Assembly: GCA_018241445.1 (NCBI GenBank)
Contig: JAFEDT010000002.1
Location: 66,855 to 130,854 of the forward strand
DNA length: 64,000 nucleotides
Origin: Pseudomonadota bacterium
Lineage (GTDB): Bacteria; Pseudomonadota; Gammaproteobacteria; Steroidobacterales; Steroidobacteraceae
Direction: 5' to 3'
Translations under genes and position numbers: made by a program
Part shown: positions 418 through 24,369 of the stretch, in pieces
Layout: each line of letters starts with the position of its first letter
Numbering within the stretch: position 1 is the first letter of the stretch
The notes under the pieces: generated by a model
Told to the model about the DNA's origin: nothing
Seen by the model: only the letters and a program-made list of their open reading frames with translations
The model's database searches: none

Positions 418-425
418 TTGGTGCC

Positions 426-2411: not shown

Positions 2412-2444
2412 CGGGTATCCTGCGGCGGTGGAAGGGAGACTATA

Positions 2445-4057: not shown

Positions 4058-4080
4058 AGGCGCTGGCGCGCCACTGCTCA

Positions 4081-4103: not shown

Positions 4104-4141
4104 TACATATAGCCCGGAGCAAGACCGGAGGCGCTGGCGCC

Positions 4142-5154: not shown

Positions 5155-5220
5155 GGTTTCCGCTCCCGTCCCCTGCCTGCGGCCGCGACCCGCGGCAAGC
5201 GGGTCACAACCGGCGCCAGG

Positions 5221-7893: not shown

Positions 7894-8048
7894 CCCACCC
7901 TCTGTATTCTGCTGCTGTCAGACCCGCCGCACTGCCTGCCAGCCACCGCTGCTCATTCTCAATCAGAGCCGGCGGGCGCAGTTTCGTACCTTGCGGGGGG
8001 CGGCGCATTATACACAGGCGTCCCGTCACCCGGGGCAGGAGTGATCCC

Positions 8049-9299
8049 ATGCCGAGCGGCCTGTCGCGCGGATTGTTCTTCCTCGCGAGCTCGGTGGTCG
8101 CGGGCCTGGCGCTGGCATTCGTGATCATTGCTGTGCGCCCGCAGCTGTTGCGCCCTGCCATCCAGGCGGCGGCGCCGGAAGTCGCCCAAGCCCCCGCAGC
8201 ACCTGCGGCGCCTGCGTTGCCAGCGGCGCAAACCCTCGCCGCGCCGACAACGGCAGTCCCGCCGCCCTCCGTGCCGACGGCTGGCCCGACCCCCGGCATC
8301 GCCGCACAAGCTGCCCTTGCCGTCCACGGTTCGCTGTCCAGCGCCGCTGCGCGGGCCGCCCCGGCGGTAGTGAACATCTACACCGCGCGCGTGGTGACAG
8401 AACGCCTCAGGCCGACGCTCGGGGAGCTGTTCGGCGATTACCTGCCCCGGTACCGGCAGCGCATCGAACGCAGCCTGGGCTCCGGGGTGATCGTGGACGA
8501 GGCGGGCCACATCGTCACCAATCATCACGTCATCGCCAACGCCGATTCCGTGCGCGTGCAGCTGGCGGACGGCAGGGTGGCAAACGCCCGCATCGTCGGC
8601 CGCGACCCGGATACCGACCTGGCGGTGCTGCAGATCGATATCCGTCCGCTGCCGGTGGCGGTATTCGGCCGATCGGACCAGCTGCGCGTGGGCGACCTGG
8701 TGCTGGCGATCGGCAACCCCCTCGGCCTGTCGCAGACGGTCACCCACGGCATCGTGAGCGCCACCAGCCGCCAGCAGCTGGGGATCGCGCCGCTGGAGGA
8801 TTTCATCCAGACCGATGCGCCGATCAATTTCGGCAACTCCGGTGGCGCACTGGTTGACGCCAGCGGCGCCCTGGTGGGCATCAATACCGCCATCGTCGCC
8901 AAGAACCTCGGCGTCGAGGGCATCGGCTTCGCCATACCGGTCAACATGGTGCGCGGTGTGCTGCGCGAGATCGTGGCGCACGGCCACGTGATGCGCGGCT
9001 GGATCGGCATCCTCCCCGAGGACCTGAACGACGAGCAGGCCGGGCAGCTCGGGCTGGCGCAGGCAGGCGTGGTCATCGGCAACCTGTATGCGGGCAGCCC
9101 CGCGCAGCAGGCCGGCCTGCAGCCCGGGGACCTCCTGCTCGCCATCAACGCGGTGCCGCCGCGCAATGCGCAGGACGCACTCGGCCGCATTGCCACCTTG
9201 AAGCCCGGCGCCACCGTGTTGCTGCGTGGACTGCGCGGACGGCAGGTGTTCGAGACCCGGGCGACGGTCCGGGAGCGGCCACGCGGCGCCGGCGGCTGA
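8049..9299 (+). CDS. DegS/AlgW-like membrane-anchored trypsin-fold serine protease with one PDZ domain
   Basis: 416 aa. It has an N-terminal TM helix (GLFFLASSVVAGLALAFVIIAV), a ~55-aa Ala/Pro-rich linker, the catalytic triad context (IVTNHHV, DTDLAVLQ, GNSGGALV) and a single PDZ (GVVIGNLYAGSPAQQAGLQPGDLLLAIN). Confidence 0.85.
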   Translation: MPSGLSRGLFFLASSVVAGLALAFVIIAVRPQLLRPAIQAAAPEVAQAPAAPAAPALPAAQTLAAPTTAVPPPSVPTAGPTPGIAAQAALAVHGSLSSAAARAAPAVVNIYTARVVTERLRPTLGELFGDYLPRYRQRIERSLGSGVIVDEAGHIVTNHHVIANADSVRVQLADGRVANARIVGRDPDTDLAVLQIDIRPLPVAVFGRSDQLRVGDLVLAIGNPLGLSQTVTHGIVSATSRQQLGIAPLEDFIQTDAPINFGNSGGALVDASGALVGINTAIVAKNLGVEGIGFAIPVNMVRGVLREIVAHGHVMRGWIGILPEDLNDEQAGQLGLAQAGVVIGNLYAGSPAQQAGLQPGDLLLAINAVPPRNAQDALGRIATLKPGATVLLRGLRGRQVFETRATVRERPRGAGG

Positions 9300-9329
9300 C
9301 CAGGAGCGCGCATGACCGCTGGAGCCTGC

Positions 9330-10049
9330 ATGACCGAATTGACCGTCCGCCGTTTCCCCACCCGTGCCGCGCTGGATGCGGCGCTGGAAGAGCGCCTGAT
9401 CGCGGCACTGGCCAGCTCCGCAGGTGCGGGCGCGGGCGCAGGTGCGAGCGCGGGTGCGGGGGCGACGTCCGCGATCATGCTCTCGGGCGGGACTACGCCG
9501 ATGGGCGCGTACAGGGCCGTGGCGACCCGGCTGCCAACGCAGACGCTCGGGCTGCAGGTGTTCTTTTCCGATGAGCGTTACGTGCCTGCGGACTCGGAGC
9601 GCAGCAACTATCGTCAGGCCGCCCCCCTGCTCGACGCCCTGCAGCAACGCGGGGCGACCATCGTACGCGTGCCCACGCAGCTGACGCTCGAAGCAGCCAC
9701 CGCACAGTACGAGGAGCAGCTTGCCGCTTTGCTGCGCAGTGGCACGCCGATCGGACTCGGACTGCTTGGACTGGGCGCCGACGGTCACACGGCGTCGCTC
9801 TTCAGCCAGGCCGATCTGCAGCGCGCCCGCGGCCGGCTCACCCTCTCCGTACAGCGCCCGGACGGCTTGTCGGCCGTCAGCGTGACGCCCGATCTGCTGG
9901 AGCGCGTCGACGATCTGCTCTTCGTCACCGTGAGCGCCGGGAAGGAGGAGGCCTTGCGTCGGCTGCAGGCGGGGGATTCGACCCTCCCGGCCTGGCAGGC
10001 GGTCAGCCGCCGGCCGCGCACGATGCTTTGGGTGGCCGAGACGGGCTAG
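9330..10049 (+). CDS. pgl: 6-phosphogluconolactonase
   Basis: ORF 9312..10049; the likely start is MTELTV at 9330 (9312 also possible). It carries LSGGTTP and the signature GLGADGHTASLF. An Ala/Gly low-complexity insert (SSAGAGAGAGASAGAGA) precedes the LSGG motif. Confidence 0.85.
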   Translation: MTELTVRRFPTRAALDAALEERLIAALASSAGAGAGAGASAGAGATSAIMLSGGTTPMGAYRAVATRLPTQTLGLQVFFSDERYVPADSERSNYRQAAPLLDALQQRGATIVRVPTQLTLEAATAQYEEQLAALLRSGTPIGLGLLGLGADGHTASLFSQADLQRARGRLTLSVQRPDGLSAVSVTPDLLERVDDLLFVTVSAGKEEALRRLQAGDSTLPAWQAVSRRPRTMLWVAETG

Positions 10050-10240: not shown

Positions 10241-13200
10241 ATGAGCAATTCAAGTCGCAGCGTGCGACAGGCCGTGAGGCTTGCGCTGACAGTGTGCGCC
10301 ACCACCACGGCGGCACCGTTGGCTTTCGCCCAGACGGCGCCGGCCGCGGCTGCAGCGCAGAACGGGCCCATCCTTCAGGAAGTGGTGGTTACCGGATCGC
10401 GCATCAAGTCCGCGAGCCTGGAAGCGATCAGTCCCGTAACAGCGGTGGGCGCGGAGGAAATCAAGGACTCCGGCGTGACCCGCGTCGAGGACCTGCTGAA
10501 CAGCCTGCCGCAGGTCGTTGCTGACCAGGGATCGGGCCTGTCCATGGGATCAACGGGTGTCGCCAACCTCAACCTGCGCGGCCTGGGCGTGCAGCGCACC
10601 CTGGTGCTGGTCAACGGCCGGCGCCTGATGCCCGGCGACCCGACCGGCGGCGGGGCGAGCGTCACCAACCTCGGTTATGCCTCCGCGGCGGACGTGAACC
10701 AGATTCCCGTGGCACTGGTCGAGCGCGTCGACGTGCTCACCGGGGGCGCGTCGGCGACCTACGGCGCCGATGCGGTCGCAGGCGTGGTCAACTTCGTCAT
10801 GAACGACCACTTCGAGGGAGTGCGCCTCGACGTCAACGCCGGCATCTACAATCACGAGAATCACAACAAGTTCATCAACGGGCTGCTGACGAAGCGCAAA
10901 TTCCCGACGGTCAGCGGCAGCAACTGGGACGGGCAGAACAAAGACCTGACCCTGGTGATGGGGCACAACTTCGCCGACGGCGCGGGCAACTTCGAAGGCT
11001 ATCTCGGGTACCGCCGGTCATCGCCGATGACGGCCGATCACCGCGATTTCGCCTCCTGCGTACTCACTTCGACCCCCTCGACTTCGTTCACCCCGTACAC
11101 CTGCGGCGGTTCGAGCAACTCCGCGCCGGCCGTCGTCTACAATCAGACGACCTTCGCCTCGGATCAGGTCGACGCGAACGGCAACCTGGTGAAGAAGTAC
11201 CAGCGCTTCAACTACGCCGCCAGTCACTACCTGCAGCGCATCGACGAGCGGTACACGGCCGGGTTCTTCGGGCATCTGAAGTTCAACCAGCACGTCGAGG
11301 CGTACACCGAGTTCATGTTCATGGACGACTCGACCCGTGGCAACTACGCTCCCGCGGGCATCTTCCTCGCCAGCGGCTTCGCCAAGGATCCGAACACGGG
11401 GCTGCGCGACGGCAACTGGCTTGTTAACTGCGGCACGGGTGGCTTCGGCAACGCGGGGATGAACCCCTTTCTCACGCAGAACGAGTACACCACGCTGTGC
11501 AGCCCGGGCTCGCCCTTCGGGGTGTTCCCCGCCGCCAATGGCGACGTACAGCTCCTCATGGCACGCCGCAACGTCGAAGGCGGCCCGCGCCAGGACGAGT
11601 ATCTGCACACCACCTGGCGCATGCTCGTCGGCGCGCGCGGCGATATCACCGACGCCTGGAGCTACGATGCCTCCTGGGCCTCGAGCCGGGTGCGCACCAG
11701 CGACTACCACAACAACGACACGTCCTCGAGCCGCATGCAGAATGCTCTGCTGGTGATCAAGGACCCTGTCACCGGGCAGCCCGTTTGCCGCGGCGGACAG
11801 AACGGCTGCGTGCCCTGGAATATCTGGAATCCGGCAGACCCGCTCCACCCGGCTGCAGCCGCCGTCCCGTACTTCTCCGCGCCCGGACTGCTGCTTGGTT
11901 ACGGGCAGGAGGACGTCTTCAACGCGTTCGTGAGCGGCGACCTCACGAATTCCGGTGTCAAGCTCCCGACTGCGAAAGAGGGATTGAAGGTGGTGGTCGG
12001 CACCGAGTACCGCCGCGAGACGGCCCAGTTCCGGCCGGACGAGGAATTCATCACCGCCGACCTGGCCGGGAATGGCTCGCCGATCATCGGCTACGATGCC
12101 GGCCTGCACGTCTGGGAAGGGTTCGGCGAACTCCGGATGCCGCTGGCAAGCGATCTGCCGGGCGCCAAGTCGCTGGACTTCGAGGCGGGCTACCGCTACT
12201 CGAATTACACGACAGGCTTCAGCACGAACACCTACAAGTTCGGCCTGACCTGGGCGCCCATCAGTGATGTCCGCCTGCGCGGCAGTTACAACCGTGCTGT
12301 GCGCGCACCCAACGTCGCGGAGCTCTTCAAGCCGCAATACGTAGGACTGGACGGCGGTGGCGATATCTGCGCCAACACGCAGTTCCCACCGGCCACCTGC
12401 GCGCTCACGAACGGCGGGAATCCTCTGCCGGTCTACCCGGCGCCCTCGTCACCCGCAGGCCAGTACAACGGGTTGATCGGCGGCAACACGAAGCTCCAGC
12501 CTGAGGTCGGCAAGACCATCAACTTCGGGCTCGTGTTCACGCCGACGTTCATGCCGGGGTTCTCCCTGACGGTCGATTACACCGACATCAAGATCTCGCA
12601 GGTCATCACCTCGTATGGCCCGAACCTCATCCAGGCCAATTGCATTGCGAGCAACGACCCGAACAGTGTCTGGTGCCAGACCAACCCGCCGCTGGGTGGG
12701 GTGGGCATCCATCGCGATCCGGGCGGAACGCTGTGGGCAAGCCCGCAGGGCTACACGATCGATCCGCTGATCAACCTCGGCCAGCTCGAGAACAAGGGGA
12801 TCGACGTCGGCCTCGCCTACAATGTCGGCATGGGGCGTGCGGGCCGGCTGCGCACCCGTCTGGACGGCGGGTACCTGCTGAACCTCAAGATCACCCCCGG
12901 GGGCGGGGAAAGCTACGACTGTTCCGGCTTCTTCGGCCCGGACTGCTCGCCGGCGACCCCGAAGTGGCGGCATCGCCTGGCGCTGGACTGGGACACGCCG
13001 CTCGCGGGCCTCAGCGCGGGAGCCATCTGGCGGTATTTCGGGGAGACCAAGAACGAGCTGGTCAACCCGGGCTTCCCGTCATACCTGGGCGCGGCGTTGG
13101 CCGCCGTTGGCCGGCCGGACAACCGGATCCCGACCATCAGCTACCTGGATCTGCACGCCTCGTACTCGTGGGACAAGTACACCGTGCGTATCGGTGCCAA

Positions 13201-13342
13201 CAACGTGCTCGACAAGGATCCGCCGCTGTTCGATACCATCAACTCGGGCGGCAATTCGGCTTACGCCGAGAGCAACACGTTCTCGTCCATGTACGACACC
13301 GGCGGCCGGTTCCTGTACCTGCACGTGACGGCGGATTTCTAG
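10241..13342 (+). CDS. TonB-dependent outer-membrane receptor (large, ~1030 aa)
   Basis: It has a signal peptide (AAPLAFAQT), plug motifs (VVVTGSRIK, NLNLRGLG, TLVLVNGRR, VERVDVLTGGASATYGADAVAGVVNF), a long beta-barrel and the terminal YLHVTADF with a C-terminal aromatic residue. Confidence 0.9.
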   Translation: MSNSSRSVRQAVRLALTVCATTTAAPLAFAQTAPAAAAAQNGPILQEVVVTGSRIKSASLEAISPVTAVGAEEIKDSGVTRVEDLLNSLPQVVADQGSGLSMGSTGVANLNLRGLGVQRTLVLVNGRRLMPGDPTGGGASVTNLGYASAADVNQIPVALVERVDVLTGGASATYGADAVAGVVNFVMNDHFEGVRLDVNAGIYNHENHNKFINGLLTKRKFPTVSGSNWDGQNKDLTLVMGHNFADGAGNFEGYLGYRRSSPMTADHRDFASCVLTSTPSTSFTPYTCGGSSNSAPAVVYNQTTFASDQVDANGNLVKKYQRFNYAASHYLQRIDERYTAGFFGHLKFNQHVEAYTEFMFMDDSTRGNYAPAGIFLASGFAKDPNTGLRDGNWLVNCGTGGFGNAGMNPFLTQNEYTTLCSPGSPFGVFPAANGDVQLLMARRNVEGGPRQDEYLHTTWRMLVGARGDITDAWSYDASWASSRVRTSDYHNNDTSSSRMQNALLVIKDPVTGQPVCRGGQNGCVPWNIWNPADPLHPAAAAVPYFSAPGLLLGYGQEDVFNAFVSGDLTNSGVKLPTAKEGLKVVVGTEYRRETAQFRPDEEFITADLAGNGSPIIGYDAGLHVWEGFGELRMPLASDLPGAKSLDFEAGYRYSNYTTGFSTNTYKFGLTWAPISDVRLRGSYNRAVRAPNVAELFKPQYVGLDGGGDICANTQFPPATCALTNGGNPLPVYPAPSSPAGQYNGLIGGNTKLQPEVGKTINFGLVFTPTFMPGFSLTVDYTDIKISQVITSYGPNLIQANCIASNDPNSVWCQTNPPLGGVGIHRDPGGTLWASPQGYTIDPLINLGQLENKGIDVGLAYNVGMGRAGRLRTRLDGGYLLNLKITPGGGESYDCSGFFGPDCSPATPKWRHRLALDWDTPLAGLSAGAIWRYFGETKNELVNPGFPSYLGAALAAVGRPDNRIPTISYLDLHASYSWDKYTVRIGANNVLDKDPPLFDTINSGGNSAYAESNTFSSMYDTGGRFLYLHVTADF

Positions 13343-13370
13343 AAGAAACGCAGCGAAGACCTGAAGGTAC

Positions 13371-15257
13371 TCAGACGGCGGGCGCGAGCCCGCCGTCTTT
13401 TTTTGGGTGCCCGAAAGTCGCCTGCCAGGTGGCGGAATAGCCCCAACGCTCGATCCACGGCATGAGCGTAGCGAGCACTTCGCCGCTGAAGTGAGGTGCG
13501 TAGTGCCTCCACCTGCCGACGGCGCGGTTCGTGACCGGCTCGACGACCTGGGCGTAGCTCGGGGTCGTGATGAACTTGCCGCGGGCGTGCTCCCCGGGCG
13601 CTAGCATCGCATCGTCCCAGGGCAACTCGAGAAATGCGCTCAGCTTGCGCACCTCGGCAGGGAAATCCGCGGTGAGCTGCTCGTAGCGCAACTCATAGCT
13701 CGAAGGGCGCAGCAGCGGCCATTGGGCATACCAGAAGGAGAAGCAGCGGGAGTAGACCCTGGCCAGCGTCTCCAGGTCGCGGCACGCGAGCGCCAGCGGG
13801 GGGGCGGCGAAGTGCTGCATGTAGCAGCTGAGCAATACGTCGCAGGGATGCCGGATGGCGAGAACGATGCGCGCATTGGGAAACAGCCGCCGGATCACTG
13901 GCACGAAGATCATGTTCAAGGGGGCCTTGTCCACCAGGCGCTGGCCCGGCAACAGGTGCGCGCGCCTGCGGGCCCGCTCCCAGTAGCCGGCACGGATCTC
14001 CTCCAGATCCCGTGCGCTCAGTTTCCCGAGCTCGGTGGGATAGTGGATGCCCCGATCCCTGATCTCGGTGAGTGCGCGCAGCACCAGGCCCTGCTCGTCC
14101 ATGGACCGCAGCAGGGGATGCGCATCGAGCACCTGCTCCAGCAGAGTCGTCCCCGAGCGCGGAAACCCCACGATGAAGATCGGACTCTCGGCGACTCCCG
14201 GACCGTCGCTCCCCCAGCTGCCCACATCCCCGGGATCGCAGCTCTCCGCCGTGAACACCCAATAGTTGGACTGCTCCAGCGTTTTGTCATGTGCGCGTTC
14301 GAGGAACTGAAGCTGCGACCGGTGTGCCTCCTCGGCGGCCGAGTACGCCTCTTCGTAGCGCCCCAACGCGTCGCACGTCCGGGCAAACAGGAACAGCAGC
14401 TTATGCCGGTGGACGAATTCCTCGTGGTGCTTCAGCGCCAGCGCCAGGTGTCGGTAAGCCTCCTCGTGCTGGCCGGCTCTCGCAGCCAGCGCCGCAGACA
14501 TGAGCCGCCGGGCGGGATCCGGCTCCGCACGGCGGTCTTCGAGCTCGAGCCGCTCCAGCGCCGCGCGCGCCTCGTCCAGGCGGCTCAGCCGCTCCAGGAT
14601 CGACACGCACCCGAGTGCCGCAAGCCCCTGCCGCGGGGGATTCGCCAGGAGCCTCTGCACCTCCGGCTCCGCTGGATCCACCGCCGCCATCCCTCCAAGG
14701 AGCAGGATGATGCGGACGGTGAACTCGACCGTGAGGCCCTCGAGGTCCTGCCACCCTTCCAGGGCTTCGAGGGCCTCCTCGCGCTGGAAGACGTCGAAGC
14801 AGCATTGGGCGAAGGCCCAGCGAATCCGGCCGTCGGCCGGCGCGAGCTTCACCCCGTCGCGCAGGGCGAGGTACGCCGCGCCGTAGTCACAGCGATCCAT
14901 CTGCAGGACGCCCAGGTTGTACAGCACCCCTGGCGTGGGCGGAGCGAGCTTGAGCGCCTGCTCGAACGCCGCCAGGGCCTGCTCGTAGCGATTGGTCGGG
15001 CGCAGCACGGTGCCAAGATGTTCCCAGTGCCTGGCCACCGTCGGCTCCAGCAGCGTCAGCGCGTTGAAGACCCGCACCGCGTCCTCGTGTCTTCCCTGGG
15101 ACGAGAGGACGGTGCCGAGTACCTCCAGCGCCCCCGGGTGATGCTGGTGTGCCGCGAGGACCTGCAGGCACTTCTCCTGGGCGGCGCCGGGCTGTCCGCT
15201 GGCGAGATCCTGCTGCGCAAGCTGCAGGAGCAATTCGGGGTCGGCAGAAGACAACAT
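13371..15257 (-). CDS. TPR-repeat protein fused to a PAPS-type sulfotransferase domain
   Basis: Part of ORF 13371..15602; the likely start is MLSSADPELL at 15257 (alternative 15299). The N-terminal ~400 aa are TPR-like repeats. The C-terminal domain carries a 5'-PSB-like FPRSGTTLLEQVLDAHP and a 3'-PB-like LAIRHPCDVLLS. There is no signal peptide. Confidence 0.8.
   Translation of the reverse strand: MLSSADPELLLQLAQQDLASGQPGAAQEKCLQVLAAHQHHPGALEVLGTVLSSQGRHEDAVRVFNALTLLEPTVARHWEHLGTVLRPTNRYEQALAAFEQALKLAPPTPGVLYNLGVLQMDRCDYGAAYLALRDGVKLAPADGRIRWAFAQCCFDVFQREEALEALEGWQDLEGLTVEFTVRIILLLGGMAAVDPAEPEVQRLLANPPRQGLAALGCVSILERLSRLDEARAALERLELEDRRAEPDPARRLMSAALAARAGQHEEAYRHLALALKHHEEFVHRHKLLFLFARTCDALGRYEEAYSAAEEAHRSQLQFLERAHDKTLEQSNYWVFTAESCDPGDVGSWGSDGPGVAESPIFIVGFPRSGTTLLEQVLDAHPLLRSMDEQGLVLRALTEIRDRGIHYPTELGKLSARDLEEIRAGYWERARRRAHLLPGQRLVDKAPLNMIFVPVIRRLFPNARIVLAIRHPCDVLLSCYMQHFAAPPLALACRDLETLARVYSRCFSFWYAQWPLLRPSSYELRYEQLTADFPAEVRKLSAFLELPWDDAMLAPGEHARGKFITTPSYAQVVEPVTNRAVGRWRHYAPHFSGEVLATLMPWIERWGYSATWQATFGHPKKDGGLAPAV
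13374..13404 (+). terminator. Rho-independent terminator of the TonB-dependent receptor gene
   Basis: GACGGCGGGC-GCGA-GCCCGCCGTC followed by TTTTTTT (13398-13404), 32 nt after the receptor stop. The same sequence encodes the last 12 codons of the convergent sulfotransferase gene. Confidence 0.85.
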
Positions 15258-15397
15258 CAGGCAGTTCCACTCATCCGGGCCACGCGTTCGGTGAAGCATA
15301 AGACAAAACGGCCCGGGACCGCTCCCGCCGTCGGGGCTCAAAGTCGATGAACATCGTGGTGGTGTATCCTCGCGTGCGTGTGGCGGAGGCAAATTCC

Positions 15398-17638
15398 ATG
15401 AGCGCGACTGATCCTGCCGGTCACGCGAGCCTTGCCGCCGCGGTGCGCGACCATCGCGCCGGACGCCTGCGCGAAGCGGTCTCGGCCTACGAGGCTCTGC
15501 TGCTCCGTACGCCCAACGATGCCGATCTGCTGCAACTGCTCGGGGTCGCGCTGGCTCAACTCGGACGTCATGCGGAAGGAGCCGTGCGCCTCGCGCGTTC
15601 ACTGGAGCTGCAACCGGGGCGCCCTGGCGTGCTGCTCAATCTCGCCCAGGCACTGCACACGCTCGGGCGGGAGCAGGAGGCGCTGCGCGCCTGCGAAAGT
15701 GCGCTCGCCCTGGATCCGTCGCTCGCGGGGGGCTACCGGACGCGCGCCGCGGTGCTCACGGCGCTCGGTCGCCGGGACGAGGCGCTTGCCAACGCCGGCC
15801 AGGCGGTGCGTCTCGCGCGCCAGGATGCCGGTGCGCACGCGGATCTCGGGGCGGCGCTGGAGGCCGTGGGGCGCGAGGGCGAAGCCCTGGAGTGCTTTGA
15901 ACGGGCCACGACCCTCGATCCGAACCTGGTCGCGGCGCATCACAACCAGGCCGTCCTGCTGGCGCGCCAGGGTCAGCACGAACGTGCGCTGCAGAGCCTC
16001 GATCGCGCGCTCGCCCTGCAACCCCACAAGGCTGCGCTGCACGGCAATCGGGGTAATGCCCTGAAAGCCCTCGGACGTCTGCCCGAAGCCGCGGAGAGTT
16101 ACTCGCTCGCGCTCGCGCTCGAACCGGGCAACCCCGCGACCCTGCACAATCGCGCCGTCGTACATGCGCTGCTGGGGAAGCACACCGAAGCGCTGCGCGA
16201 CTACGATGCCCTGGCGGCCCAAGGCCAGGAGAGTGGCGCTGACCTGATCGGCCGCGGCGCCGCACTGGTTGCGCTGCGCCGCTACGACGAGGCGCTGGCG
16301 CCGCTCGAGCGAGCCACGAAGCTGCTGCCTGGGGAGGCGGAGGCGCACATCCAGTGTGGCATGGCGCTGCTCAACGTCGAGCGCAATGCCGAGGCCGTCG
16401 AAAGCTTCGACCGCGCGCTCGCGCTCCGGCCGGACGTGCCTGAAGTGTTGAACAACCGCGGCATTGCGCTGACGGTGACGGGACGGCTGTCCGAGGCGCT
16501 CAGCAGCTTCATTCGCTCCTCGGTCCTGGATGGCAACACCGCTGACACCCATACCAACCTGGGCATTGTCCTGAAGAGTCTCGGACGTCCCCTGGAAGCG
16601 GCCACCAGCTTCGACCGCGCACTCGCGCTCAAGCCCAACGACGCTTCAGCGAGATTTGCGCTGGCGTTCCTGTACCTGTCCCTGGGTGAATTTGCCCGTG
16701 GGTGGCCGCTTTACGAAGCGCGCTTCGACGTCCCGGCACTCGGAAACCCGGCGCGCCGCTTCAACGCGCCGCGCTGGCGCGGCAGCGAGCCGCTGTCGGG
16801 CAAGACACTGCTGGTCCACGCCGAACAGGGCCTGGGTGACGTCATACAGTTCTGCCGTTACCTGCCGTTGCTCACAGCGCAGGGAGCCGTCGTCGTGTTC
16901 GAGGTGATGCCCTCGCTCGAAGCATTGCTGGCTACTTTGCCGGGTGCGATCCGCATTATCGGCCGGGGCGAACCCGCGCCCCCGATCGACTATTACTGTC
17001 CGCTGCTGAGTCTCCCACACGCTCTCAAGACCCGATTCGATACGATCCCGGCTCCGGTGCCGTACCTCGCGGCGCAGCCCGAGCGCATCGCCAGGTGGGC
17101 GCAGCGGCTGCGGGCGCTCCCGGGAATGCGCGTAGGGATCGCCTGGCAGGGTAACCTGCAGGTGGAAAAGCTCGTCTGGGCCCGCGGACGGTCGATTCCA
17201 CTGGCGGCCCTGGAGCCGCTGGCGCGGCTGCGGGGCGTCAGCCTGGTGTCGCTGCAGAAAGGGCCCGGTCTCGAGCAGCTGCGCCAGGTGCCGTTCGCCG
17301 ACCGGATCGTCGACTTGAGTTCCGAGCTCGACTCCGGAGCTGATGCGTTCCTCGACACTGCAGCCGTCATGGCGGGTCTCGACCTGGTAGTGAGCAGCGA
17401 CACCGCCATCGCGCACCTTGCCGGAGCGCTCGGTCGGCCGGTCTGGACGGCTCTCAATGCGTCACCCGAATGGCGATGGCTGCTCAAGTGCGACGACAGC
17501 CCGTGGTACCCGACCATGCGCCTGTTCCGGCAGACGACCGCCGGTGACTGGAGCGGGGTGGTAGACGAAATATCCGCTGCGCTGCAGGCGCTCGCCCCCG
17601 CGTGGCCCGTGGGCAACCGGGCTACTGAGAACGTGTGA
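15398..17638 (+). CDS. TPR-repeat protein fused to a GT9 (heptosyltransferase)-like glycosyltransferase domain
   Basis: Part of ORF 15347..17638, start MSATDPAG at 15398. About 430 aa of regular 34-aa TPR units (ALxLxPxxxxAxxNxG...) come first. The C-terminal domain has LVHAEQGLGDVIQFCRYLPLL and LVVSSDTAIAHLAGALGRPVWTAL. These parallel RLSALGDTSHVVPIVRTL and LVSPDSGPAHMATMAGTPCIGL of the GT9 enzyme at 61258-62322 in this window. Confidence 0.75.
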   Translation: MSATDPAGHASLAAAVRDHRAGRLREAVSAYEALLLRTPNDADLLQLLGVALAQLGRHAEGAVRLARSLELQPGRPGVLLNLAQALHTLGREQEALRACESALALDPSLAGGYRTRAAVLTALGRRDEALANAGQAVRLARQDAGAHADLGAALEAVGREGEALECFERATTLDPNLVAAHHNQAVLLARQGQHERALQSLDRALALQPHKAALHGNRGNALKALGRLPEAAESYSLALALEPGNPATLHNRAVVHALLGKHTEALRDYDALAAQGQESGADLIGRGAALVALRRYDEALAPLERATKLLPGEAEAHIQCGMALLNVERNAEAVESFDRALALRPDVPEVLNNRGIALTVTGRLSEALSSFIRSSVLDGNTADTHTNLGIVLKSLGRPLEAATSFDRALALKPNDASARFALAFLYLSLGEFARGWPLYEARFDVPALGNPARRFNAPRWRGSEPLSGKTLLVHAEQGLGDVIQFCRYLPLLTAQGAVVVFEVMPSLEALLATLPGAIRIIGRGEPAPPIDYYCPLLSLPHALKTRFDTIPAPVPYLAAQPERIARWAQRLRALPGMRVGIAWQGNLQVEKLVWARGRSIPLAALEPLARLRGVSLVSLQKGPGLEQLRQVPFADRIVDLSSELDSGADAFLDTAAVMAGLDLVVSSDTAIAHLAGALGRPVWTALNASPEWRWLLKCDDSPWYPTMRLFRQTTAGDWSGVVDEISAALQALAPAWPVGNRATENV

Positions 17639-18077
17639 CCCGCAGCTTGCGATGCTTTTCCCCCACCAGCCACAGGGAACTCATCGCACCGTGCTCGATG
17701 TGCACTTCCTCGCCGACCGCGAAGGACATGTTGGGCCGGGCCTCCGCGGCACGCCACACCTGCTGGTTATCCAGGGTAAATACCAACTCGCCGTAGGGAG
17801 TCTGGCTCAGCCCGGCGATCTTTGCGGTCAGTCGCTCGGCGCGCGCCGCCGGCACGGCTGCCGGATCGCGCTGGTGGCGGATCTCGGCCGTCATGCCGAT
17901 GCGGTCGGCCTCGACCTGCGGCAGGCGCTTCACGACCGCGTCAAAACAATCGAGCCGTTGCGCCGGATCGCCCTGCTGCGCACAGTGGCGGAGCGCCTTG
18001 TCGAGATCCTCGGCGGCGCAAAGAGCGGGCAGGCAGACTGCCAGCAGCAAGGCCGCGGCGGCGGCTGCGCGGGTCAT
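17622..18077 (-). CDS. Small secreted protein of unknown function (151 aa)
   Basis: C-terminal part of ORF 17622..18560, with ATG 18077 overlapping the stop of the upstream hydroxylase gene (ATGA). Signal peptide MTRAAAAAALLLAVCLPALCAAED, a Cys pair in LRHCAQQGDPAQRLDCFD, then a beta-rich C-terminal half (GELVFTLDNQQVWR...EEVHIEHGAMSSLWLV). Confidence 0.6.
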   Translation of the reverse strand: MTRAAAAAALLLAVCLPALCAAEDLDKALRHCAQQGDPAQRLDCFDAVVKRLPQVEADRIGMTAEIRHQRDPAAVPAARAERLTAKIAGLSQTPYGELVFTLDNQQVWRAAEARPNMSFAVGEEVHIEHGAMSSLWLVGEKHRKLRVTRSQ

Positions 18078-19378
18078 CGTGACCCCAACACAGGTGCATC
18101 CTCGCCGTAGTGGCGTCCGATGCCGACGGTCAGCGCGCTGACGAGATCCCGCTCCGCGGCGGTCAGCAACGGATTCCAGATATCGAAGATCAGGATGATG
18201 CGCAGCTGATCGCTGTCGTTGTGCGCCTCGTGCTCGATGGTGTCGTCGAACACCCAGGCCTGTCCCTTCTGCCAGGTACGCACGGCCGTGCCCACACGGA
18301 AGGTGCAGCCGTCCGGCACCACGAGTGGCAGGTGCACGATGGAGCGCGTGTTGGTGGTACCGGTGTGCGGCGGCAGTCGCGTGCGTGGCTTGAGCACCGA
18401 GAAAAATGCGCCGGGGGCGTAGCCGGGAATCTCGCACAGCGGCAGTTGCGCGAGCACCGCGGCCGTTCGTGGACACTTCGTAAGGTGAGCCGCAATCGGC
18501 GTTCCGTCGTGCCACAGCGGGTAGACGCTCCAGTCCATGGAGTGATTCAGCGGGGCCCACTGGTCGATCGGGGCGCCGGGCGGAAAATCCACGTAGGGCT
18601 TGAACCCGACGCCATCGCTTGCCAGGACACCCCGGGCCTCGGCGGCAATTTCGTCCGTGGCGGCTTCGAGAGTCCCGAGCCAGGGGAAGTATTCGCGGCC
18701 GAAGAATTCCAGCGCTGGCAGATAAGGGAACAGGACCTGTTTCGGCTGGCTGTAGTAGACCGGGCGCTTGCGCAGATAGAGATCCCGGCAGGCCTGGTAG
18801 CGGCTCAGGTCCGCGCCCGCGTGCCGCTCGCGCACCGTGGCCGCCTCCTGCTCCAGCAATCCTTCCAGTTCGCGCCGGCTTGCGGCGACCACGTCGCGCG
18901 CATGGTCGATCGCTCGCGCCGCCTGCTGCGGAGCCGGCGCCCCCGAGGCCATGGAATCGAGGGCTGCCTCGTAGAGAGTTACCGCCGCCCTGGATTGTCC
19001 GCGCTGCTCTGCAAGTTGACCCTTCTGCAACAGCGCTACCACATAGCGCGGCTCGATGGCCAGTGCCCGATCAAGGGCCGCGGTTTCCGACTCCGCATCC
19101 CCGAGCGCCCGACAGGCATTGGCCAGGTTGAGCCACAGGACCTTGGAACCCGCATCGATGGCACTGGCCCGCTCGAACAGCTCGCGGGCATCCCGGGGTC
19201 TGCCGGCGCGCATCATGTAGCCCGCAGCCGCATTCAACACCAGCGGTTGGCGCGGCCCGCGCTGCAAGGCCTGATTCACAAGCTTGCTGGCCAATTCGGG
19301 TGACTCGACCCGCGATACCTGTTCGATGGCGTCGGCAAGGGCACGAGCTTCGGCTTCGCCGAGCGGGCTCTGGTCCAT
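18074..19378 (-). CDS. TPR-repeat protein fused to an aspartyl/asparaginyl beta-hydroxylase-type Fe(II)/2-oxoglutarate oxygenase domain
   Basis: 434 aa. The N-terminal ~150 aa are TPR-like (LWLNLANACRALGD..ALAIEPRYVVALLQKG). The C-terminal domain has the Asp/Arg-hydroxylase signatures LKPRTRLPPHTGTTN, HLPLVVP and WVFDDTIEHEAHN. There is no signal peptide or TM segment. Confidence 0.8.
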   Translation of the reverse strand: MDQSPLGEAEARALADAIEQVSRVESPELASKLVNQALQRGPRQPLVLNAAAGYMMRAGRPRDARELFERASAIDAGSKVLWLNLANACRALGDAESETAALDRALAIEPRYVVALLQKGQLAEQRGQSRAAVTLYEAALDSMASGAPAPQQAARAIDHARDVVAASRRELEGLLEQEAATVRERHAGADLSRYQACRDLYLRKRPVYYSQPKQVLFPYLPALEFFGREYFPWLGTLEAATDEIAAEARGVLASDGVGFKPYVDFPPGAPIDQWAPLNHSMDWSVYPLWHDGTPIAAHLTKCPRTAAVLAQLPLCEIPGYAPGAFFSVLKPRTRLPPHTGTTNTRSIVHLPLVVPDGCTFRVGTAVRTWQKGQAWVFDDTIEHEAHNDSDQLRIILIFDIWNPLLTAAERDLVSALTVGIGRHYGEDAPVLGSR

Positions 19379-19548
19379 GAGTCTTTCACTCGTGGGTCTG
19401 GCTGCGGAGGTCCGCAGTGTAGCTGTTGCCGGATTCCGGCGTCAGTGGTGTGCCAGCCACGGCCTGATGGGCAGGATTGCGACGGAAGGCGCAAATTGAT
19501 CGACAAACCCCAGGGGACAAGCACCACGTCCCGTGATAGGTTCAGCGC

Positions 19549-20598
19549 ATGGCTCCCATCATGTCCGCCCGTCGCCGGGGCGCACTGGCGCCGGTGCTGA
19601 TCCTCGCCGCCCTGTGCTTGGGCGGGGCAACGGTGTGTGATGCGCGCGACCTGGCGGAGGACCGGCCGCAACAGCTCAGCAGCGAGCTGTCCGACATGCT
19701 GTCCCCGCAAGACGCGGCGCTGCTGGCGCTGCCCACCACGCGCGATCACATCGGCCGTATCGTCGTGCAGGCGATGGTCAACGGCAAAGGACCTTTCCGC
19801 TTCGTCGTGGACACCGGGGCCACCCAGTCGACCCTGTCCCCGGGGCTGGTGCGCACCCTGGGGCTGACGCCTTCGGCCACACCGTCCATTCTCGTCAATG
19901 GGATCACCGGCTCCGAGCCGGTTTCCGCGGTGTCGCTCGACACCCTGCGGGCGGGCGACCTGACCTTCGATGACGTCGTTGCGCCCATCGTGTGGGCGCC
20001 GGTGATGGCGGGCGCGGACGGGATTCTCGGTATCGCGGGGCTCAGGGAGAAGAGCCTCTCGGTCGACTTTCTGCGCAACCGTGCGGAGATCGCCCGCGCA
20101 GTGGATTCGGGTGTGCGCCAGGCTGGGCTGCGCATTCACGCCAGCCAGATGACCCACGGCCTGATGACCCTGGAGATGCGGGTCGGCGGGGTGCGCGCCC
20201 TGGCCATCATCGATACGGGAGCGGAACGCACCCTGGGCAATCACGCGCTGTACGAGGCCCTGCATCTGCACCGGCGGGCGGGCGCGGTGACCCGCGTGAC
20301 CTCAGTCTACGGCGCCACGCCGGAAATCGAACCCGGGGAGATCTGGCGGGCGCCGACGCTGGTCATCGACACGCTGCGGATCAACGACGTCGACGTGGTG
20401 TACGGAGACTTCCACATCTTCAAGGTGTGGCAGATGCAGGACCAGCCGGCGATGATCGTCGGCATGGACGTACTCGGCACGGTCGCCTCGCTCGGCATAG
20501 ACTTCAAGAACCGGGACGTGTACTTCACCAACTCGCGCAGCAGCAGCGAGACCCTGCGCTCCACCGGCAACCTGGCATCCCCGGGACAGAGGCGATAA
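19549..20598 (+). CDS. Secreted tandem retropepsin-like (clan AA) aspartic protease, two DTGA lobes in one chain
   Basis: 349 aa with signal peptide RRRGALAPVLILAALCLGGATVCDA. Lobe 1 has FRFVVDTGATQS ... DGILGIAGL. Lobe 2 has ALAIIDTGAERT ... AMIVGMDVLG. Confidence 0.75.
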   Translation: MAPIMSARRRGALAPVLILAALCLGGATVCDARDLAEDRPQQLSSELSDMLSPQDAALLALPTTRDHIGRIVVQAMVNGKGPFRFVVDTGATQSTLSPGLVRTLGLTPSATPSILVNGITGSEPVSAVSLDTLRAGDLTFDDVVAPIVWAPVMAGADGILGIAGLREKSLSVDFLRNRAEIARAVDSGVRQAGLRIHASQMTHGLMTLEMRVGGVRALAIIDTGAERTLGNHALYEALHLHRRAGAVTRVTSVYGATPEIEPGEIWRAPTLVIDTLRINDVDVVYGDFHIFKVWQMQDQPAMIVGMDVLGTVASLGIDFKNRDVYFTNSRSSSETLRSTGNLASPGQRR

Positions 20599-20634
20599 CC
20601 CTGCTGGCCGGATCCGCGCTATCCGCGCGGCAGC

Positions 20635-21840
20635 TCAACGCATGCCGTAGGCGTCGGCAACCACATCACCGATCTGTTCGCCCATGTGCCTGCCCACCTC
20701 GCCCGAGTGGCGGTAATGTACGCCCGCCCAGATGCGGGCCATGAATACCTCCTGAACCAGATCGTCGGTGCTCGCCCAGTGGTGAGTGACTCCCGGCAGG
20801 GTATTGCTGGTGGTGCTGAGGGCGATCTGCGGCTTGCCGCCATTGTCGGCGCGGATCACGGTCGCGATAACCGCGGCCAGCATGCAGTGCGCGCAGGGAT
20901 ACTCGGGCTGCATCGGTGTAGTGATCAGCGGCACCCAGTTGGCCTCGCGCTCGGTGGCGGCGTTGTTGTCCTTGTCGCCGTTGCGCAGCGCTGTGATGGG
21001 CCGCCAGAACAGGTAGTGGTACTTGGCATCGAAGGCCGCAATTTCACTGTCACTCATCGCCGCGGTCGCCGCCGCGTACAGTCGCGCGTTGCGCGTCACC
21101 TCGCGGCCCGGTGCGGTGGCTACGGAGCGGATCACTCCCACGTCGATATCCGGCAGCGCGGTAGCCCAGAACCGGGCGATGCTGGTCTGCTCCGCCGTGC
21201 GCACCGTGCTGTTGACGCCGCCCACCGTCTTGAGCTCGTTATAGTCGCGCGCCCAGACCGCCCCGGTGAGATCCGGCGGCGGACCGGGCCGCAGCTGTGC
21301 AGCACTCTTCAGGAACCAGGGCCGATGCTGCGCCAGCGACCACCCGGTGGGGATGGTCGTCGGTACGTACAGGCCCGGCGGCCCGGCAGGCCGGTACGGC
21401 TCCAGCGGCGGGATCTCACCTGCGTGTTTGGCAAGTACGTCTGCGGCGGCACGCTCCCCAACTTCCATACCGCGCTTTTTTGCCTCGCTGTCACCGATCC
21501 CCGCCAGCGCCCGCTGGTACGCGTCCTCGACGCGAGCCGCCAGGGCCGGCTCCTCGTGCAGTAATATCTTGCGGCTCGCCGCGGCCACCGCCGCGTCGAT
21601 CGAGGCGCCCTGCGCCGGGCCCAGGTCGACATGATCCCGCGGATAGCGCCGCGTAATGGCGTTGACCGCTTCGTAGACCGCGCTCTGCGCCAGAGCCATG
21701 GTACGGATGGTGTTGGCGCCGTCGTCCGCGATCTGGGTGGTCGTATCGGCCCAGTCGGCAACCACATCGGCGGTTGCCACGGACGTGGTCATAAGGAGAG
21801 CGGCAGCCGCTGCGGCCAGAGCGAGGTTCTTGGTGTGCAT
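20635..21840 (-). CDS. Secreted PAP2-superfamily protein, vanadium-dependent haloperoxidase / acid-phosphatase-like
   Basis: ORF 20635..21876, likely start MHTKNLALAAAAAALL at 21840 (signal peptide). The PAP2 motifs are KYHYLFWRP (K-x6-RP), PEYPCAH (PSGH position) and ARIWAGVHYRHS (R-x5-H). Confidence 0.65.
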   Translation of the reverse strand: MHTKNLALAAAAAALLMTTSVATADVVADWADTTTQIADDGANTIRTMALAQSAVYEAVNAITRRYPRDHVDLGPAQGASIDAAVAAASRKILLHEEPALAARVEDAYQRALAGIGDSEAKKRGMEVGERAAADVLAKHAGEIPPLEPYRPAGPPGLYVPTTIPTGWSLAQHRPWFLKSAAQLRPGPPPDLTGAVWARDYNELKTVGGVNSTVRTAEQTSIARFWATALPDIDVGVIRSVATAPGREVTRNARLYAAATAAMSDSEIAAFDAKYHYLFWRPITALRNGDKDNNAATEREANWVPLITTPMQPEYPCAHCMLAAVIATVIRADNGGKPQIALSTTSNTLPGVTHHWASTDDLVQEVFMARIWAGVHYRHSGEVGRHMGEQIGDVVADAYGMR

Positions 21841-21895
21841 GGGTTTAATGGTAAGCAAGGGGAAACAGTGCGGCAACCCGCCGGCCCGGGGCGAT

Positions 21896-23323
21896 CTACC
21901 CAGGAGGGATCACCCGGCGGCAGGAGCGCAGCCAATCCGGGGCCTTGGCCCCCGGGTTGTGCCAGCCGCAACGTCCGGTCAGCAGCTTCTCCGCCTCCGG
22001 GGGGCCCCAGCTCGCGGGGGCATATTCGATGACCGGCGGCTTCAATCCCAGCACCGGATCGACGATGGCCCACGCGGCCTCGACCTCGTCCTGGCGGGCG
22101 AAGTGCGCGGTGTCACCGATCATCGCCGAGCTGATCAGCACTTCGTAGGCGTCCATGTCGTCGCCCGGCTGCTGCGCCATGAACAGTTCGATTTCCCGGC
22201 CGGTCATCACCGGGCCCGGCTTCTTGACCGAGGCGCCCAGCGCGATCGCCACGTCCGGGCCGACGCGGAAACGCAGATAATTGGGTTCGTCGGGACCTAA
22301 GTCCCCGAACACGTTGACGGGAGGCGCCTTCAGCTCCACCACCACCTCGGTGGCGGTCACGGGGAGGGATTTTCCCGCCCGCAGGTAGAACGGCACGCCA
22401 CTCCAGCGCCACGAGTCGATCTGCAGGGCTAGGGCGGCGTAGGTCTCCACCTGCGAATCCGGTGCCACGCCGGCTTCGGCCCGGTAACCGCGGAACTGCC
22501 CGCGTACCAGCTGCGACACGGATGCCGGCCGCACCGCCTTCAGCAGCTTCACTTTCTCGTCGCGCAGCGACTCGCCCTCGCGGTTCAGGGGCGGTTCCAG
22601 CGTCAGGAGTGCCATGATCTGCAGCAGGTGGTTCTGGATCACGTCGCGGATCGCGCCGGCCTCGTCATAGAACTTGCCGCGGCCGGCGACGCCGAGCGTC
22701 TCCGCCATGGTGATCTGCACGCTGGCGACGAAGTTGCGGTTCCAGATCGGTTCCAGGAAGGAGTTGGCGAAGCGGAAGTACAGGATGTTCTGCACTGCCT
22801 CCTTCCCGAGGTAGTGGTCGATACGAAAGATCGCACTTTCGGGAAAGTGGGCATGCAGCGCGGCGTTGAGCTCCCGGGCGCTCGCCAGGTCGCGGCCGAA
22901 GGGCTTTTCCACGACCACGCGCGCGCCGCGGCCGGCGCCGGAGTTGGCGAGGTGCGCCACCACCACCGGGAACATGCTGGGCGGAATCGCCAGGTAGTGC
23001 AGCGGCCGCTGCGCCGTACCCAGCGCCTGGCGCAGTACCTTGAAGGTCGCCAGGTCGTTGTAATCGCCGTCGACGTAGCGCAGCAGACCGGTCAGCCGCG
23101 CCACCACTGCCGGGTCGGCCGCCGGCACGAAGGCTGCGAGGCTTTCGCGCACGCGGCCCGCGAGTTGTTCCAGTTTCCAACCCTGGCGCGCGACACCGAC
23201 CACCGGGACCGTCAACAGTCCGCGGCGCACCAGCTGGTACAGCGCCGGAATGATCTTGCGGTAACACAGATCGCCCGTGGCGCCGAACAGCACCAGGGCA
23301 TCGCAGTCCTGGCGTTCCATCAT
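21896..23323 (-). CDS. zwf: Glucose-6-phosphate 1-dehydrogenase
   Basis: Part of ORF 21896..23518. The start [19 protein letters not shown] at 23323 overlaps the gnd stop (ATGA). It carries the RIDHYLGKE signature and the NADP fold GATGDL. Confidence 0.95.
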
Positions 23324-24369
23324 GAAGCCCTCGTCGGACCCGGCGCTGCCGGCCCAGCCCCGGCGGGCTTCTCCACGTGTCCGCCGAATCCCAGCCGCAT
23401 GGCTGACAGCACCTTGTTGGCAAAGTCGGCCAGGCCGCGCGAATCGAAGCGCGAGTACAGGGCCGCGGTCAGCACCGGCGCCGGCACGCCGACCTCGATG
23501 GCGGCCTGCGCGGTCCAACGGCCCTCGCCGGAATCGGCCACGTTACCGGAGAACCCGGCCAGCGCCGGGTCATTCACCAGTGCGGCGGCGGTCAGGTCCA
23601 GCAGCCGCGAGGAGACGATGCTGCCGTGGCGCCACACTTCGGCGATGGCCGCGACGTCGAGCGGATACTGGTAGTACTGCGGGTTGGCCAGCGGCGCGGT
23701 CTCCGCATCCGCGGTGGCGGCGCGCGTGCCGGCATTGGCGTGCGCCAGCAGGTTCAATCCTTCCGCGTAGGCGGCCATCAGCCCGTACTCGATGCCGTTG
23801 TGCACCATCTTGACGAAGTGGCCGGAGCCCGCGGGACCGCAGTGCAGGTAGCCCAGTTGCGCGGCTGCGTGACTTGCGGCCCCGGCGCCGCCGGCGGCCA
23901 TGCGCCCGCCCGGCGCCAGCGTGGCCAGCGCCGGCTCCAGCAGCGCGACGGCGTGCGCCTCGCCTCCGACCATCAGGCAGTAACCCTGCTCGAAACCGAG
24001 CACTCCGCCACTGGTGCCGGCGTCCACGTAGGCAATGCCGTCAGCCTTGAGGTTCGCGGCGCGGCGGATGTCGTCGTGGTAGTGGGAGTTGCCGCCGTCG
24101 ATCAGCACGTCGCCGGTGCGCAGCAGCGGCCGCAGCTGCGCGATGACGCCATCGACGATGGCGGCGGGCACCATGATCCACACGGCGCGCGGCGGCGCCA
24201 GCGCCTGCACCAGCGCGGCGGGTGAATCGACACTGCGTGCGCCGTAACCGGCGGCGACCTGCCGCGCCTGCGCGGAAGGATCGTAGGCGACGCACTCGTG
24301 CCCACCCTGCACCAGCCGGCGCACCATGTTGGCGCCCATCCTGCCCAGTCCGATCATCCCTATCTGCAT
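23320..24369 (-). CDS. gnd: 6-phosphogluconate dehydrogenase, decarboxylating (short ~350-aa form)
   Basis: 349 aa: [19 protein letters not shown] (Rossmann), [30 protein letters not shown]. Confidence 0.9.

Follow-up and report, generated by a model that had tools for sequence, protein, structure and literature searches.

What do three enzymes that share a tetratricopeptide-repeat (TPR) architecture but differ in their chemistry do side by side, next to a small secreted protein and a TonB-dependent receptor? The question is raised by a locus in a 64,000-nucleotide stretch of DNA from a soil gammaproteobacterium of the Steroidobacteraceae (GenBank assembly GCA_018241445.1, contig JAFEDT010000002.1, forward-strand positions 66,855 to 130,854). 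We refer to this whole stretch as the window and number positions from its first nucleotide; related loci carry L numbers and their own coordinates. An original prediction, made from the letters alone, had described 13371-19378 as a cluster of a sulfotransferase (ST), a GT9-like glycosyltransferase (GT) and an Asp/Asn beta-hydroxylase (AspH), and had suggested that these enzymes modify exported proteins. Our analysis shows that the conserved unit is wider and comprises seven genes (10241-21876). From comparison with related sequences we tentatively propose that the exported proteins encoded in this unit would be modified in the cytoplasm before their export, and that the unit would act as a self-contained envelope module.

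Three TPR-fused enzymes

Pfam searches agreed with the architecture that had been read from the sequence: three neighbouring coding sequences each combine TPRs with a catalytic domain of their own, and all of the motifs quoted for them are present. The ST matched several TPR families and, at residues 361-551, Sulfotransfer_3 (PF13469), with 119.8 bits against a cut-off of 27 over the whole profile (1-216). The nearest solved structures to the ST domain are protein-tyrosine sulfotransferases (8w5z, 1.9e-21; TPST1 and TPST2, ~1e-14), and the alignment with TPST spans the entire domain. The best structure outside this group was the CurM sulfotransferase (3e-5). Kept in the ST are PRSGTTL, LDAHP..R..DE, DKAP (with its Lys), IRHP (with its Arg) and PSYAQVVEP (with its Ser), which in the alignment with TPST1/2 and 8w5z correspond to an identical PRSGTTL and to LDAHP..R(S/C)..(D/E)E, (D/N)K(A/D)P, (I/V)R and (P/R)S..QV(V/I)(E/K)P. 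We take the aligned residues to have the roles that they have in TPST2, with PRSGTTL as the 5'-phosphosulfate loop, the Arg and Ser contacting the 3'-phosphate and the Glu, Lys and Ser at the catalytic positions. The ST domain is TPST-like, with motifs for 3'-phosphoadenosine 5'-phosphosulfate (PAPS) binding and catalysis that are intact in the alignment, and its Tyr specificity is predicted at most.

In the GT a long TPR array of ~440 aa lies ahead of the catalytic domain. The match to Pfam PF01075 was 24.4-25.7 bits against a cut-off of 22, with only profile positions 176-207 (residues 670-701) matched. We made an AlphaFold2 (AF2) model of the C-terminal 322 aa, with a predicted local distance difference test (pLDDT) of 88 and a predicted TM-score (pTM) of 0.89, and a Foldseek search with this model returned WaaF (1psw, 9e-8), the GT9 structure 3tov (1e-7), WaaC (1e-5) and TibC (4e-5), with a query TM-score (TMq) of 0.5-0.59 for GT9 structures. 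G56-D57 (in GLGD), D244 and H249 (SSDTAIAHLAGALG) were invariant among 36 GT homologues, and so was the run A251-G252-A253-L254. By likeness to WaaC, the Asp of GLGD is presumably the catalytic Asp and D..H.A.A.G the nucleotide-sugar motif. The modelled domain has a GT-B fold that is closest to GT9 structures, as had been suggested; ADP-heptose, the donor of GT9 heptosyltransferases, is at most a candidate donor for it.

The match of AspH to Asp_Arg_Hydrox (PF05118) was 132.3 bits against a cut-off of 22.6, and the oxygenase domain of human ASPH matched at 1.8e-25. H338-T-G340, H383, R345 and R393 were invariant across homologues of 43-100% identity, and the residues align with human HTGPTNCR, FDDSFEHEV and FRLIFIVDVWHP. 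We assume from the ASPH structures that the His pair are Fe(II) ligands and that Arg binds 2-oxoglutarate (2OG). AspH is an ASPH-like 2OG oxygenase with an HTG...H motif that is intact as judged by alignment. The family is large (>5900 homologous clusters), and the named relatives of the window AspH belong to Steroidobacteraceae. Membership among the lipid hydroxylases LpxO and OlsC was ruled out, as the NCBIfam scores were far under their cut-offs (OlsC 2.9e-20, 72.5 vs 450 bits; LpxO 2.1e-14, 53.3 vs 500 bits) and there is no transmembrane (TM) window. On reading the co-encoded proteins, including the Cys loops of the receptor and the small protein, we found no epidermal growth factor (EGF)-like C-x-[DN]-x4-[FY]-x-C; nearest to the consensus was CANTQFPPATC, which is off register and is not kept in L005. 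Because this consensus is missing from the co-encoded proteins, AspH probably applies ASPH-like chemistry to a different class of substrate.

A topology scan agreed with the original prediction on the three enzymes: ST, GT and AspH have neither an N-terminal hydrophobic signal nor a convincing TM window. Hydrophobic N-termini were found on all four partners, i.e. the receptor, the small protein, the protease and the haloperoxidase-like protein.

Paralogues of the enzymes occur in other surroundings. GT paralogues with 55-57% identical GT domains lie directly downstream of TpsA exoproteins of >3500 aa in three separate assemblies, and the same three paralogues sit among several TPR-Glyco_transf_41 (OGT/HMW1C-like) genes. 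In these loci (L090 1-21408, L095 1-17041 and L097 1-17695) downstream of the giant TpsA genes, which have TPS and DUF3739 domains, come four to six TPR-Glyco_transf_41 genes, a single TPR-GT9-like gene, and T2SSC-domain and DsbC-like genes, and the whole looks like a large adhesin-glycosylation island of Steroidobacteraceae-like genomes. A 159-aa gene beside a TpsA-linked GT paralogue was considered as a relative of the small protein and rejected, since it falls outside the small-protein family. On pENTE01, a conjugative IncFIB plasmid of Enterobacter sp. 638 (L094 6810-13023), a GT8 gene and an autotransporter gene come in a row just after a TPR-sulfotransferase gene; the autotransporter passenger is Gly/Ser/Thr/Asn-rich and shows no obvious acidic-Tyr motif. 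Modules with two or three TPR-AspH paralogues were seen in L027 (9953-14340), L087 (8325-10933), L043 and L047, with an additional 2OG-FeII_Oxy_3 (prolyl-hydroxylase-like) gene in L027 (11221-11895). A plasmid of Niveispirillum cyanobacteriorum (L008 11929-13152) encodes a 48% identical TPR-AspH without the usual partners within 12 kb, in a record that is essentially unannotated (one feature overall, none in the stretch).

Exported partners and the conserved neighbourhood

The TonB-dependent receptor and the secreted aspartic protease, which had been named as flanks of the cluster, were both confirmed by Pfam (Table 1). The receptor has a signal peptide, a TonB box, a plug, a 22-strand-type barrel and five conserved Cys pairs, its N-terminus contains LQEVVVTGSRI, and an orthologue is found in every complete related locus. 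The protease, conserved across orthologous loci, consists of two Asp_protease_2 stretches and scored 41.3 bits with NCBIfam TIGR02281 (cut-off 57.95 bits). A seventh conserved member, absent from the original prediction, is a haloperoxidase-like gene that stays in the cluster while its position shifts; the solved structure nearest to its product is the Zobellia vanadium haloperoxidase 4cit (5.3e-15).

The 151-aa protein had been described as secreted and coupled to the hydroxylase, and it does have a signal-peptide-like N-terminus. The AspH stop and the small-protein start overlap in ATGA (cgATGAcc), and the two genes are translationally coupled. The protein is organised as a signal peptide, a Cys-x11-Cys helical hairpin (CA..RL.C[FY]D), a variable Pro/Ala-rich linker with FG, and a small C-terminal beta domain (..LDNGQVW..G[DE].V.I..G..GS..). 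For its family a threshold of E<=1e-3 gives 4574 representative clusters, and one of E<=1e-10 gives 1046. The window protein was unmatched by VasI (PF11319), and 11 of 31 diverse relatives matched it with their N-terminal motif only (best E 9e-5, under the 26.5-bit cut-off), so that membership in VasI was ruled out. With an AF2 model of the protein (pLDDT 78) the structure search found no significant PDB fold (best E 0.05).

To what extent is this arrangement kept? A scan of genome contigs with a single protein gave five close loci only, so that the taxonomic breadth comes from metagenome loci together with two records of plasmids or chromids. With a profile, 80 loci were retrieved from metagenome contigs; about 16 are orthologous (62-78% identity), and the others belong to paralogous groups (45-52% identical). 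Family members were placed on the loci by tblastn and a family hidden Markov model (HMM), and for distant loci we counted the 14 with >=4 kb on each side of AspH. All seven genes were kept, in shuffled order, in five long related loci (L001, L002, L003, L005 and L007); in L006 ST and GT were swapped, and the contig ends before the remaining members. Among the 14 well-flanked distant loci a TonB-dependent receptor (TBDR) was present in 13 (within 8 kb), the small protein in 13, ST in 12, a 2OG-FeII_Oxy_5 oxygenase in nine, and GT and the protease in two each. The modular core shared by the mapped loci consists of the receptor, the small protein directly downstream of the hydroxylase and one to three TPR-sulfotransferases, often with one or two 2OG-FeII_Oxy_5 oxygenases. 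The GT, protease and haloperoxidase-like genes are additions of the window subfamily, and the three-enzyme set is specific to that subfamily. The original prediction had asked whether the families co-localise in other genomes and whether their catalytic residues are degenerate; they stay neighbours across genomes and rearrangements, and the catalytic and cofactor motifs are intact in the alignments.

The core is also found in reduced and in duplicated form. In the cultured alphaproteobacterium Polymorphobacter megasporae (Sphingomonadales) it appears as a minimal trio of receptor, small protein and hydroxylase, the genes of the last two overlapping. Immediately next to its orthologous cluster, L005 has a further, paralogous module (1-8656) composed of a receptor, a small protein of 182 aa, a TPR-AspH, two TPR-sulfotransferases and a 2OG-FeII_Oxy_5 oxygenase, and L014 is doubled similarly. 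A syntenic variant (L096 5506-7311) has TPRs fused to 2OG-FeII_Oxy_5 in a protein of 601 aa. This is a fourth type of TPR-fused enzyme, and fusion to TPRs is thus a design that these enzymes share in general. As in the window, L096 is flanked by 6-phosphogluconolactonase and DegP-like genes. In L092 (178-11263), which belongs to a contig of 1.1 Mb, the locus is fragmented into numerous short gene calls, with receptor, ST and AspH each split, for which assembly frameshifts are more likely than pseudogenisation. None of the loci examined showed a transporter of the inner membrane, a binding protein, a regulator or a gene for PAPS synthesis travelling with the module, nor a short precursor gene, and the flanks of the long loci hold housekeeping genes (RNase II, 6-phosphogluconolactonase) or open reading frames (ORFs) without a Pfam match.

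The layout of the locus in the window, a region of high GC content (~0.67-0.69), is given in Table 1. We set the ST start at ~15263 because the orthologues are 563-616 aa long; a long GTG ORF reaching 15602 over-extends the gene. The GT start is probably 15398, since the called orthologous genes are 736-740 aa.

Table 1. Genes and intergenic regions of the conserved unit, in window coordinates.
Feature	Position	Strand	Remarks
TonB-dependent receptor	10241..13342	+	1033 aa; Pfam Plug 1.1e-21, TonB_dep_Rec_b-barrel 1.5e-30
TPR + TPST-like sulfotransferase (ST), cytoplasmic	13371..15263	-	~630 aa; Sulfotransfer_3 2.6e-34
Divergent ST/GT intergenic region, presumed promoters	15264..15397		read off the sequence; putative function
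TPR + GT9-like GT-B glycosyltransferase (GT), cytoplasmic	15398..17638	+	746 aa; TPR_1 1.7e-57, Glyco_transf_9 2.2e-5; alternative ATG 15347
Small Sec-exported protein	17622..18077	-	151 aa; signal-peptide-like N-terminus; without Pfam or NCBIfam match
TPR + ASPH-like 2OG/Fe(II) oxygenase (AspH), cytoplasmic	18074..19378	-	434 aa; Asp_Arg_Hydrox 1.8e-38
Divergent intergenic region between AspH-small operon and protease gene, presumed promoters	19379..19548		read off the sequence; putative function
Secreted retropepsin-like aspartic protease	19549..20598	+	349 aa; two Asp_protease_2 domains, 3e-29
Secreted vanadium-haloperoxidase/PAP2-like protein	20635..21876	-	~400 aa; probable start 21840; weak VCPO_2nd and PAP2 matches

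To the left, the cluster is bracketed by genes for a DegP-like protease and a 6-phosphogluconolactonase (8049-10049, names given after the Pfam-annotated flank of L096), and to the right by glucose-6-phosphate dehydrogenase (G6PD) and 6-phosphogluconate dehydrogenase (6PGD)-like genes (21896-24369). L092 again has the G6PD/6PGD-like genes on one side, as L096 has the lactonase and DegP-like genes, and this recurrence suggests that the cluster occupies a stable place in the chromosome and not a mobile island. An Rfam scan of the window found no riboswitch or regulatory RNA, its sole match being the bacterial RNase P RNA class A (3675-4057, plus strand, 300 bits), and a scan for anti-phage defence gave weak generic matches only.

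Proposed modification before export and its alternatives

How could these parts work together? We suggest that the TPR arrays would dock unfolded or extended segments of the co-encoded exported pre-proteins before Sec translocation, and that the catalytic domains would then add a beta-hydroxyl (+16 Da), a sulfate (+80 Da) and a sugar. PAPS, nucleotide sugars and 2OG/Fe(II) are cytoplasmic cofactors. The main substrate candidates would be the receptor and/or the small protein, which are roughly equally plausible as targets, with the protease or the haloperoxidase-like protein also possible. After export, one and the same product, or set of products, may be acted on in the periplasm by the retropepsin-like protease and the vanadium-haloperoxidase-like enzyme, and the modified product might function with the receptor by belonging to it or by being its partner in the periplasm or at the surface.

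A TpsA or autotransporter gene beside a modifying enzyme is the classic arrangement for cytoplasmic modification of secreted surface proteins. Because of the conserved linkage, the intact motifs, the likeness to TPST and ASPH and the TpsA/autotransporter contexts of the paralogues, taken together, we favour protein modification of exported proteins. This part of the original prediction therefore stands as the favoured explanation, whereas the composition of three enzymes holds for one subfamily only.

Several points weigh against modification before export, a proposal made from comparative evidence. We know of no precedent for a TonB-dependent receptor that is modified before export, and a receptor-specific motif, sought in the alignment, was not seen among what were generic conserved positions and the Cys pairs. 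The GT fold matches heptosyltransferases of lipopolysaccharide (LPS) synthesis slightly better than TibC, and the AspH domain weakly matches the lipid hydroxylases OlsC and LpxO. We also looked in the alignment of the small protein for a Tyr or an Asp/Asn conserved across all subfamilies and found none: Tyr is confined to the FGLY.AEHP subgroup, the Asp of C[FY]D is replaced by Lys in one clade, and the Asn of LDNGQ by Gly in another. For this reason the small protein is not an obvious common substrate.

This bears directly on a special case of our proposal, which we regard as doubtful, namely that the small VasI-like protein is the dedicated substrate. It would be hydroxylated, sulfated and glycosylated while still in the cytoplasm, exported by Sec, disulfide-stapled and perhaps clipped by the protease, and would then serve its own receptor as a partner or ligand-carrier in the manner of a hemophore. 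The gene order speaks for a close tie, as tblastn places the AspH and small genes next to each other, on one strand, in 45 of 65 loci, the family HMM matches 71 of 89 loci and the two reading frames overlap in the window. The linker motif also varies by subgroup alongside the enzyme content, with FGLY.AEHP accompanying the ST_b1 type and FGMTADI.R.RDP the GT-containing type, and pairs of small-protein and TBDR genes are adjacent even where AspH is missing (L071, L014). However, no residue of the required type is conserved family-wide, and in small proteins of the window type a TPST-like enzyme would find no conserved Tyr. The positions that are conserved across the 4574 representative clusters look structural (Cys pair, FG, GQ.W, G..V.I), and the protease is missing from most subfamilies.

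Remodelling of an envelope glycolipid or polysaccharide is an improbable explanation. Here the GT would add heptose or another sugar to the LPS core, AspH would hydroxylate an acyl chain in the manner of LpxO and OlsC, the ST would sulfate the glycan and the PAP2/haloperoxidase-like protein would dephosphorylate lipid A, the TPR arrays only assembling the enzymes. This is what one would expect from WaaF and WaaC as best fold matches of the GT, from the sub-threshold OlsC and LpxO matches of AspH and from the weak PAP2 match. The ST domain, in contrast, aligns end to end with TPSTs, its best match outside this group being much weaker (3e-5), and AspH, which has no TM segments such as those of LpxO, is nearer to human ASPH (1.8e-25). 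As a soluble, secreted protein the haloperoxidase-like member is unlike the integral-membrane LpxE/F, the side-by-side paralogous modules with their own receptors (L005, L014) fit a single lipid target poorly, and paralogues of the enzymes adjoin TpsA and autotransporter genes.

Slightly more improbable still is that the enzymes process a compound or peptide imported by the receptor, by hydroxylation followed by sulfation or glycosylation, for detoxification or catabolic conjugation in the cytoplasm. The tight linkage to a TBDR would be accounted for in this way, and the piuA-piuC pair, whose cytoplasmic 2OG oxygenase influences phenotypes linked to uptake, offers a precedent (PMC11878004). 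Against this, no inner-membrane transporter, periplasmic binding protein or regulator is present in the cluster or the examined flanks, no riboswitch was found, and the TPR fusions and the affinities to TPST and ASPH point to polypeptide substrates.

That unrelated genes have become neighbours by chance, where receptors and TPR proteins abound in the genome, is highly improbable, since, although TBDRs are many in these genomes and extra ones flank L001 and L007, the membership survives inversions and reshuffling down to 45-50% AspH identity, two of the genes are translationally coupled, and the same trio is found in an alphaproteobacterium.

A cluster for a ribosomally synthesised and post-translationally modified peptide (RiPP), such as a lasso peptide, was ruled out, as neither core enzymes nor exporter families were found in the window genes or the examined flanks and the window has no room for a precursor. 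A table for Pontixanthobacter lists sulfotransferase, Asp beta-hydroxylase and glycosyltransferase clusters beside lasso-peptide genes (PMC10040529), which brings the same three chemistries together in a proteobacterial cluster. The window enzymes differ in being TPR-fused, and the gaps between the cluster genes in the window are <=170 bp, too small for a short precursor ORF. Pfam and NCBIfam scans of the window gave no match to the lasso cyclase (asparagine-synthase-like), B protease or PqqD families.

Modification of exported proteins in the cytoplasm may reach beyond this one cluster. A rather unlikely extension of our proposal is that such loci form an unrecognised class of receptor accessories in many receptor-rich Proteobacteria, in which the VasI-like protein or the receptor would receive, in the cytoplasm, beta-hydroxy-Asp/Asn, sulfotyrosine and an O-glycan, modifications such as extracellular proteins of animals carry. 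The modifications would be needed for recognition or transport by the receptor, and each paralogous receptor would have an enzyme set of its own. The type of locus is abundant and links TPR-docked enzymes to TonB-dependent receptors. In proteins, sulfated Tyr and beta-hydroxylated Asp/Asn are considered to be, in the main, extracellular modifications of eukaryotes. If envelope proteins are the targets, sulfotyrosine and beta-hydroxy-Asp chemistry would be extended to bacterial envelopes, as part of a layer of envelope protein chemistry that is widespread and has so far been hidden. The enzyme genes that are found, without explanation, next to receptors in Proteobacteria of soil and water would become easier to approach, and new TPR-guided tools for sulfo-, hydroxyl- and glycosyl-transfer would be gained. 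Should the targets instead be lipids or imported compounds, several very large families that are as yet uncharacterised would still gain a defined function from this locus.

Comparison with known systems

In the full-text literature searched the cluster is not described, and these families are not mentioned by Blanvillain (2007). For each of the enzymes there is nevertheless a known counterpart. Like human ASPH, the window AspH has a TPR region followed by the oxygenase domain, and it shares the Arg residues and the HTG...H motif, in which Gly takes the place of the Asp/Glu of other 2OG oxygenases. ASPH is a type II membrane protein of the endoplasmic reticulum lumen, whereas the window AspH is cytoplasmic and soluble, so that the disulfide-dependent substrate recognition of ASPH is not possible for it.

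The window ST resembles TPST1/2 in the whole-domain alignment, the PAPS-binding motifs and the residues at the catalytic positions. In bacteria RaxST is known to sulfate the secreted peptide RaxX, and to our knowledge it is the lone well-studied bacterial tyrosine sulfotransferase. As compared to TPST and RaxST, the N-terminal TPR array is a new feature, and in contrast to RaxST-RaxX the window cluster is without a RaxX-like precursor and without RaxA/RaxB-type exporter genes.

A further likeness concerns the receptor. In fiu-ybiX, another receptor/oxygenase gene pair, as in piuA-piuC, the gene of a TonB-dependent receptor lies beside that of a cytoplasmic Fe(II)/2OG oxygenase, which is also the case in the window. 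PiuC is an oxygenase of the PKHD/prolyl-hydroxylase type without TPR, unlike the TPR-containing AspH, and piuA-piuC has no sulfotransferase, glycosyltransferase or small secreted partner, all three of which are present in the window. Mutations in piuC alter PiuA-related phenotypes (PMC11878004).

None of the nearest analogues, i.e. the adhesin-modifying pairs, RaxST-RaxX and piuA-piuC, joins these chemistries, TPR targeting and a TonB-dependent receptor. In the adhesin-modifying pairs, the GT9-like heptosyltransferases AAH/TibC with the autotransporters AIDA-I/TibA and the GT41 enzyme HMW1C with the TpsA adhesin HMW1, a dedicated cytoplasmic glycosyltransferase is encoded beside the exported surface or outer-membrane protein that is modified before secretion; AAH/TibC and HMW1C thus act on adhesins in the cytoplasm, before export. 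The window GT is like TibC in its GT-B fold, and its paralogues adjoin TpsA and GT41 genes. The partner of AAH/TibC and HMW1C is an adhesin, whereas the window carries no autotransporter, and the partners there are a TonB-dependent receptor and a small periplasmic protein; the window GT differs also by its ~440-aa TPR array and by the accompanying sulfotransferase and hydroxylase. Dedicated cytoplasmic modification of exported proteins is, taken together, a kind of system already known, and it is to this kind that we infer the function of the present locus to belong.

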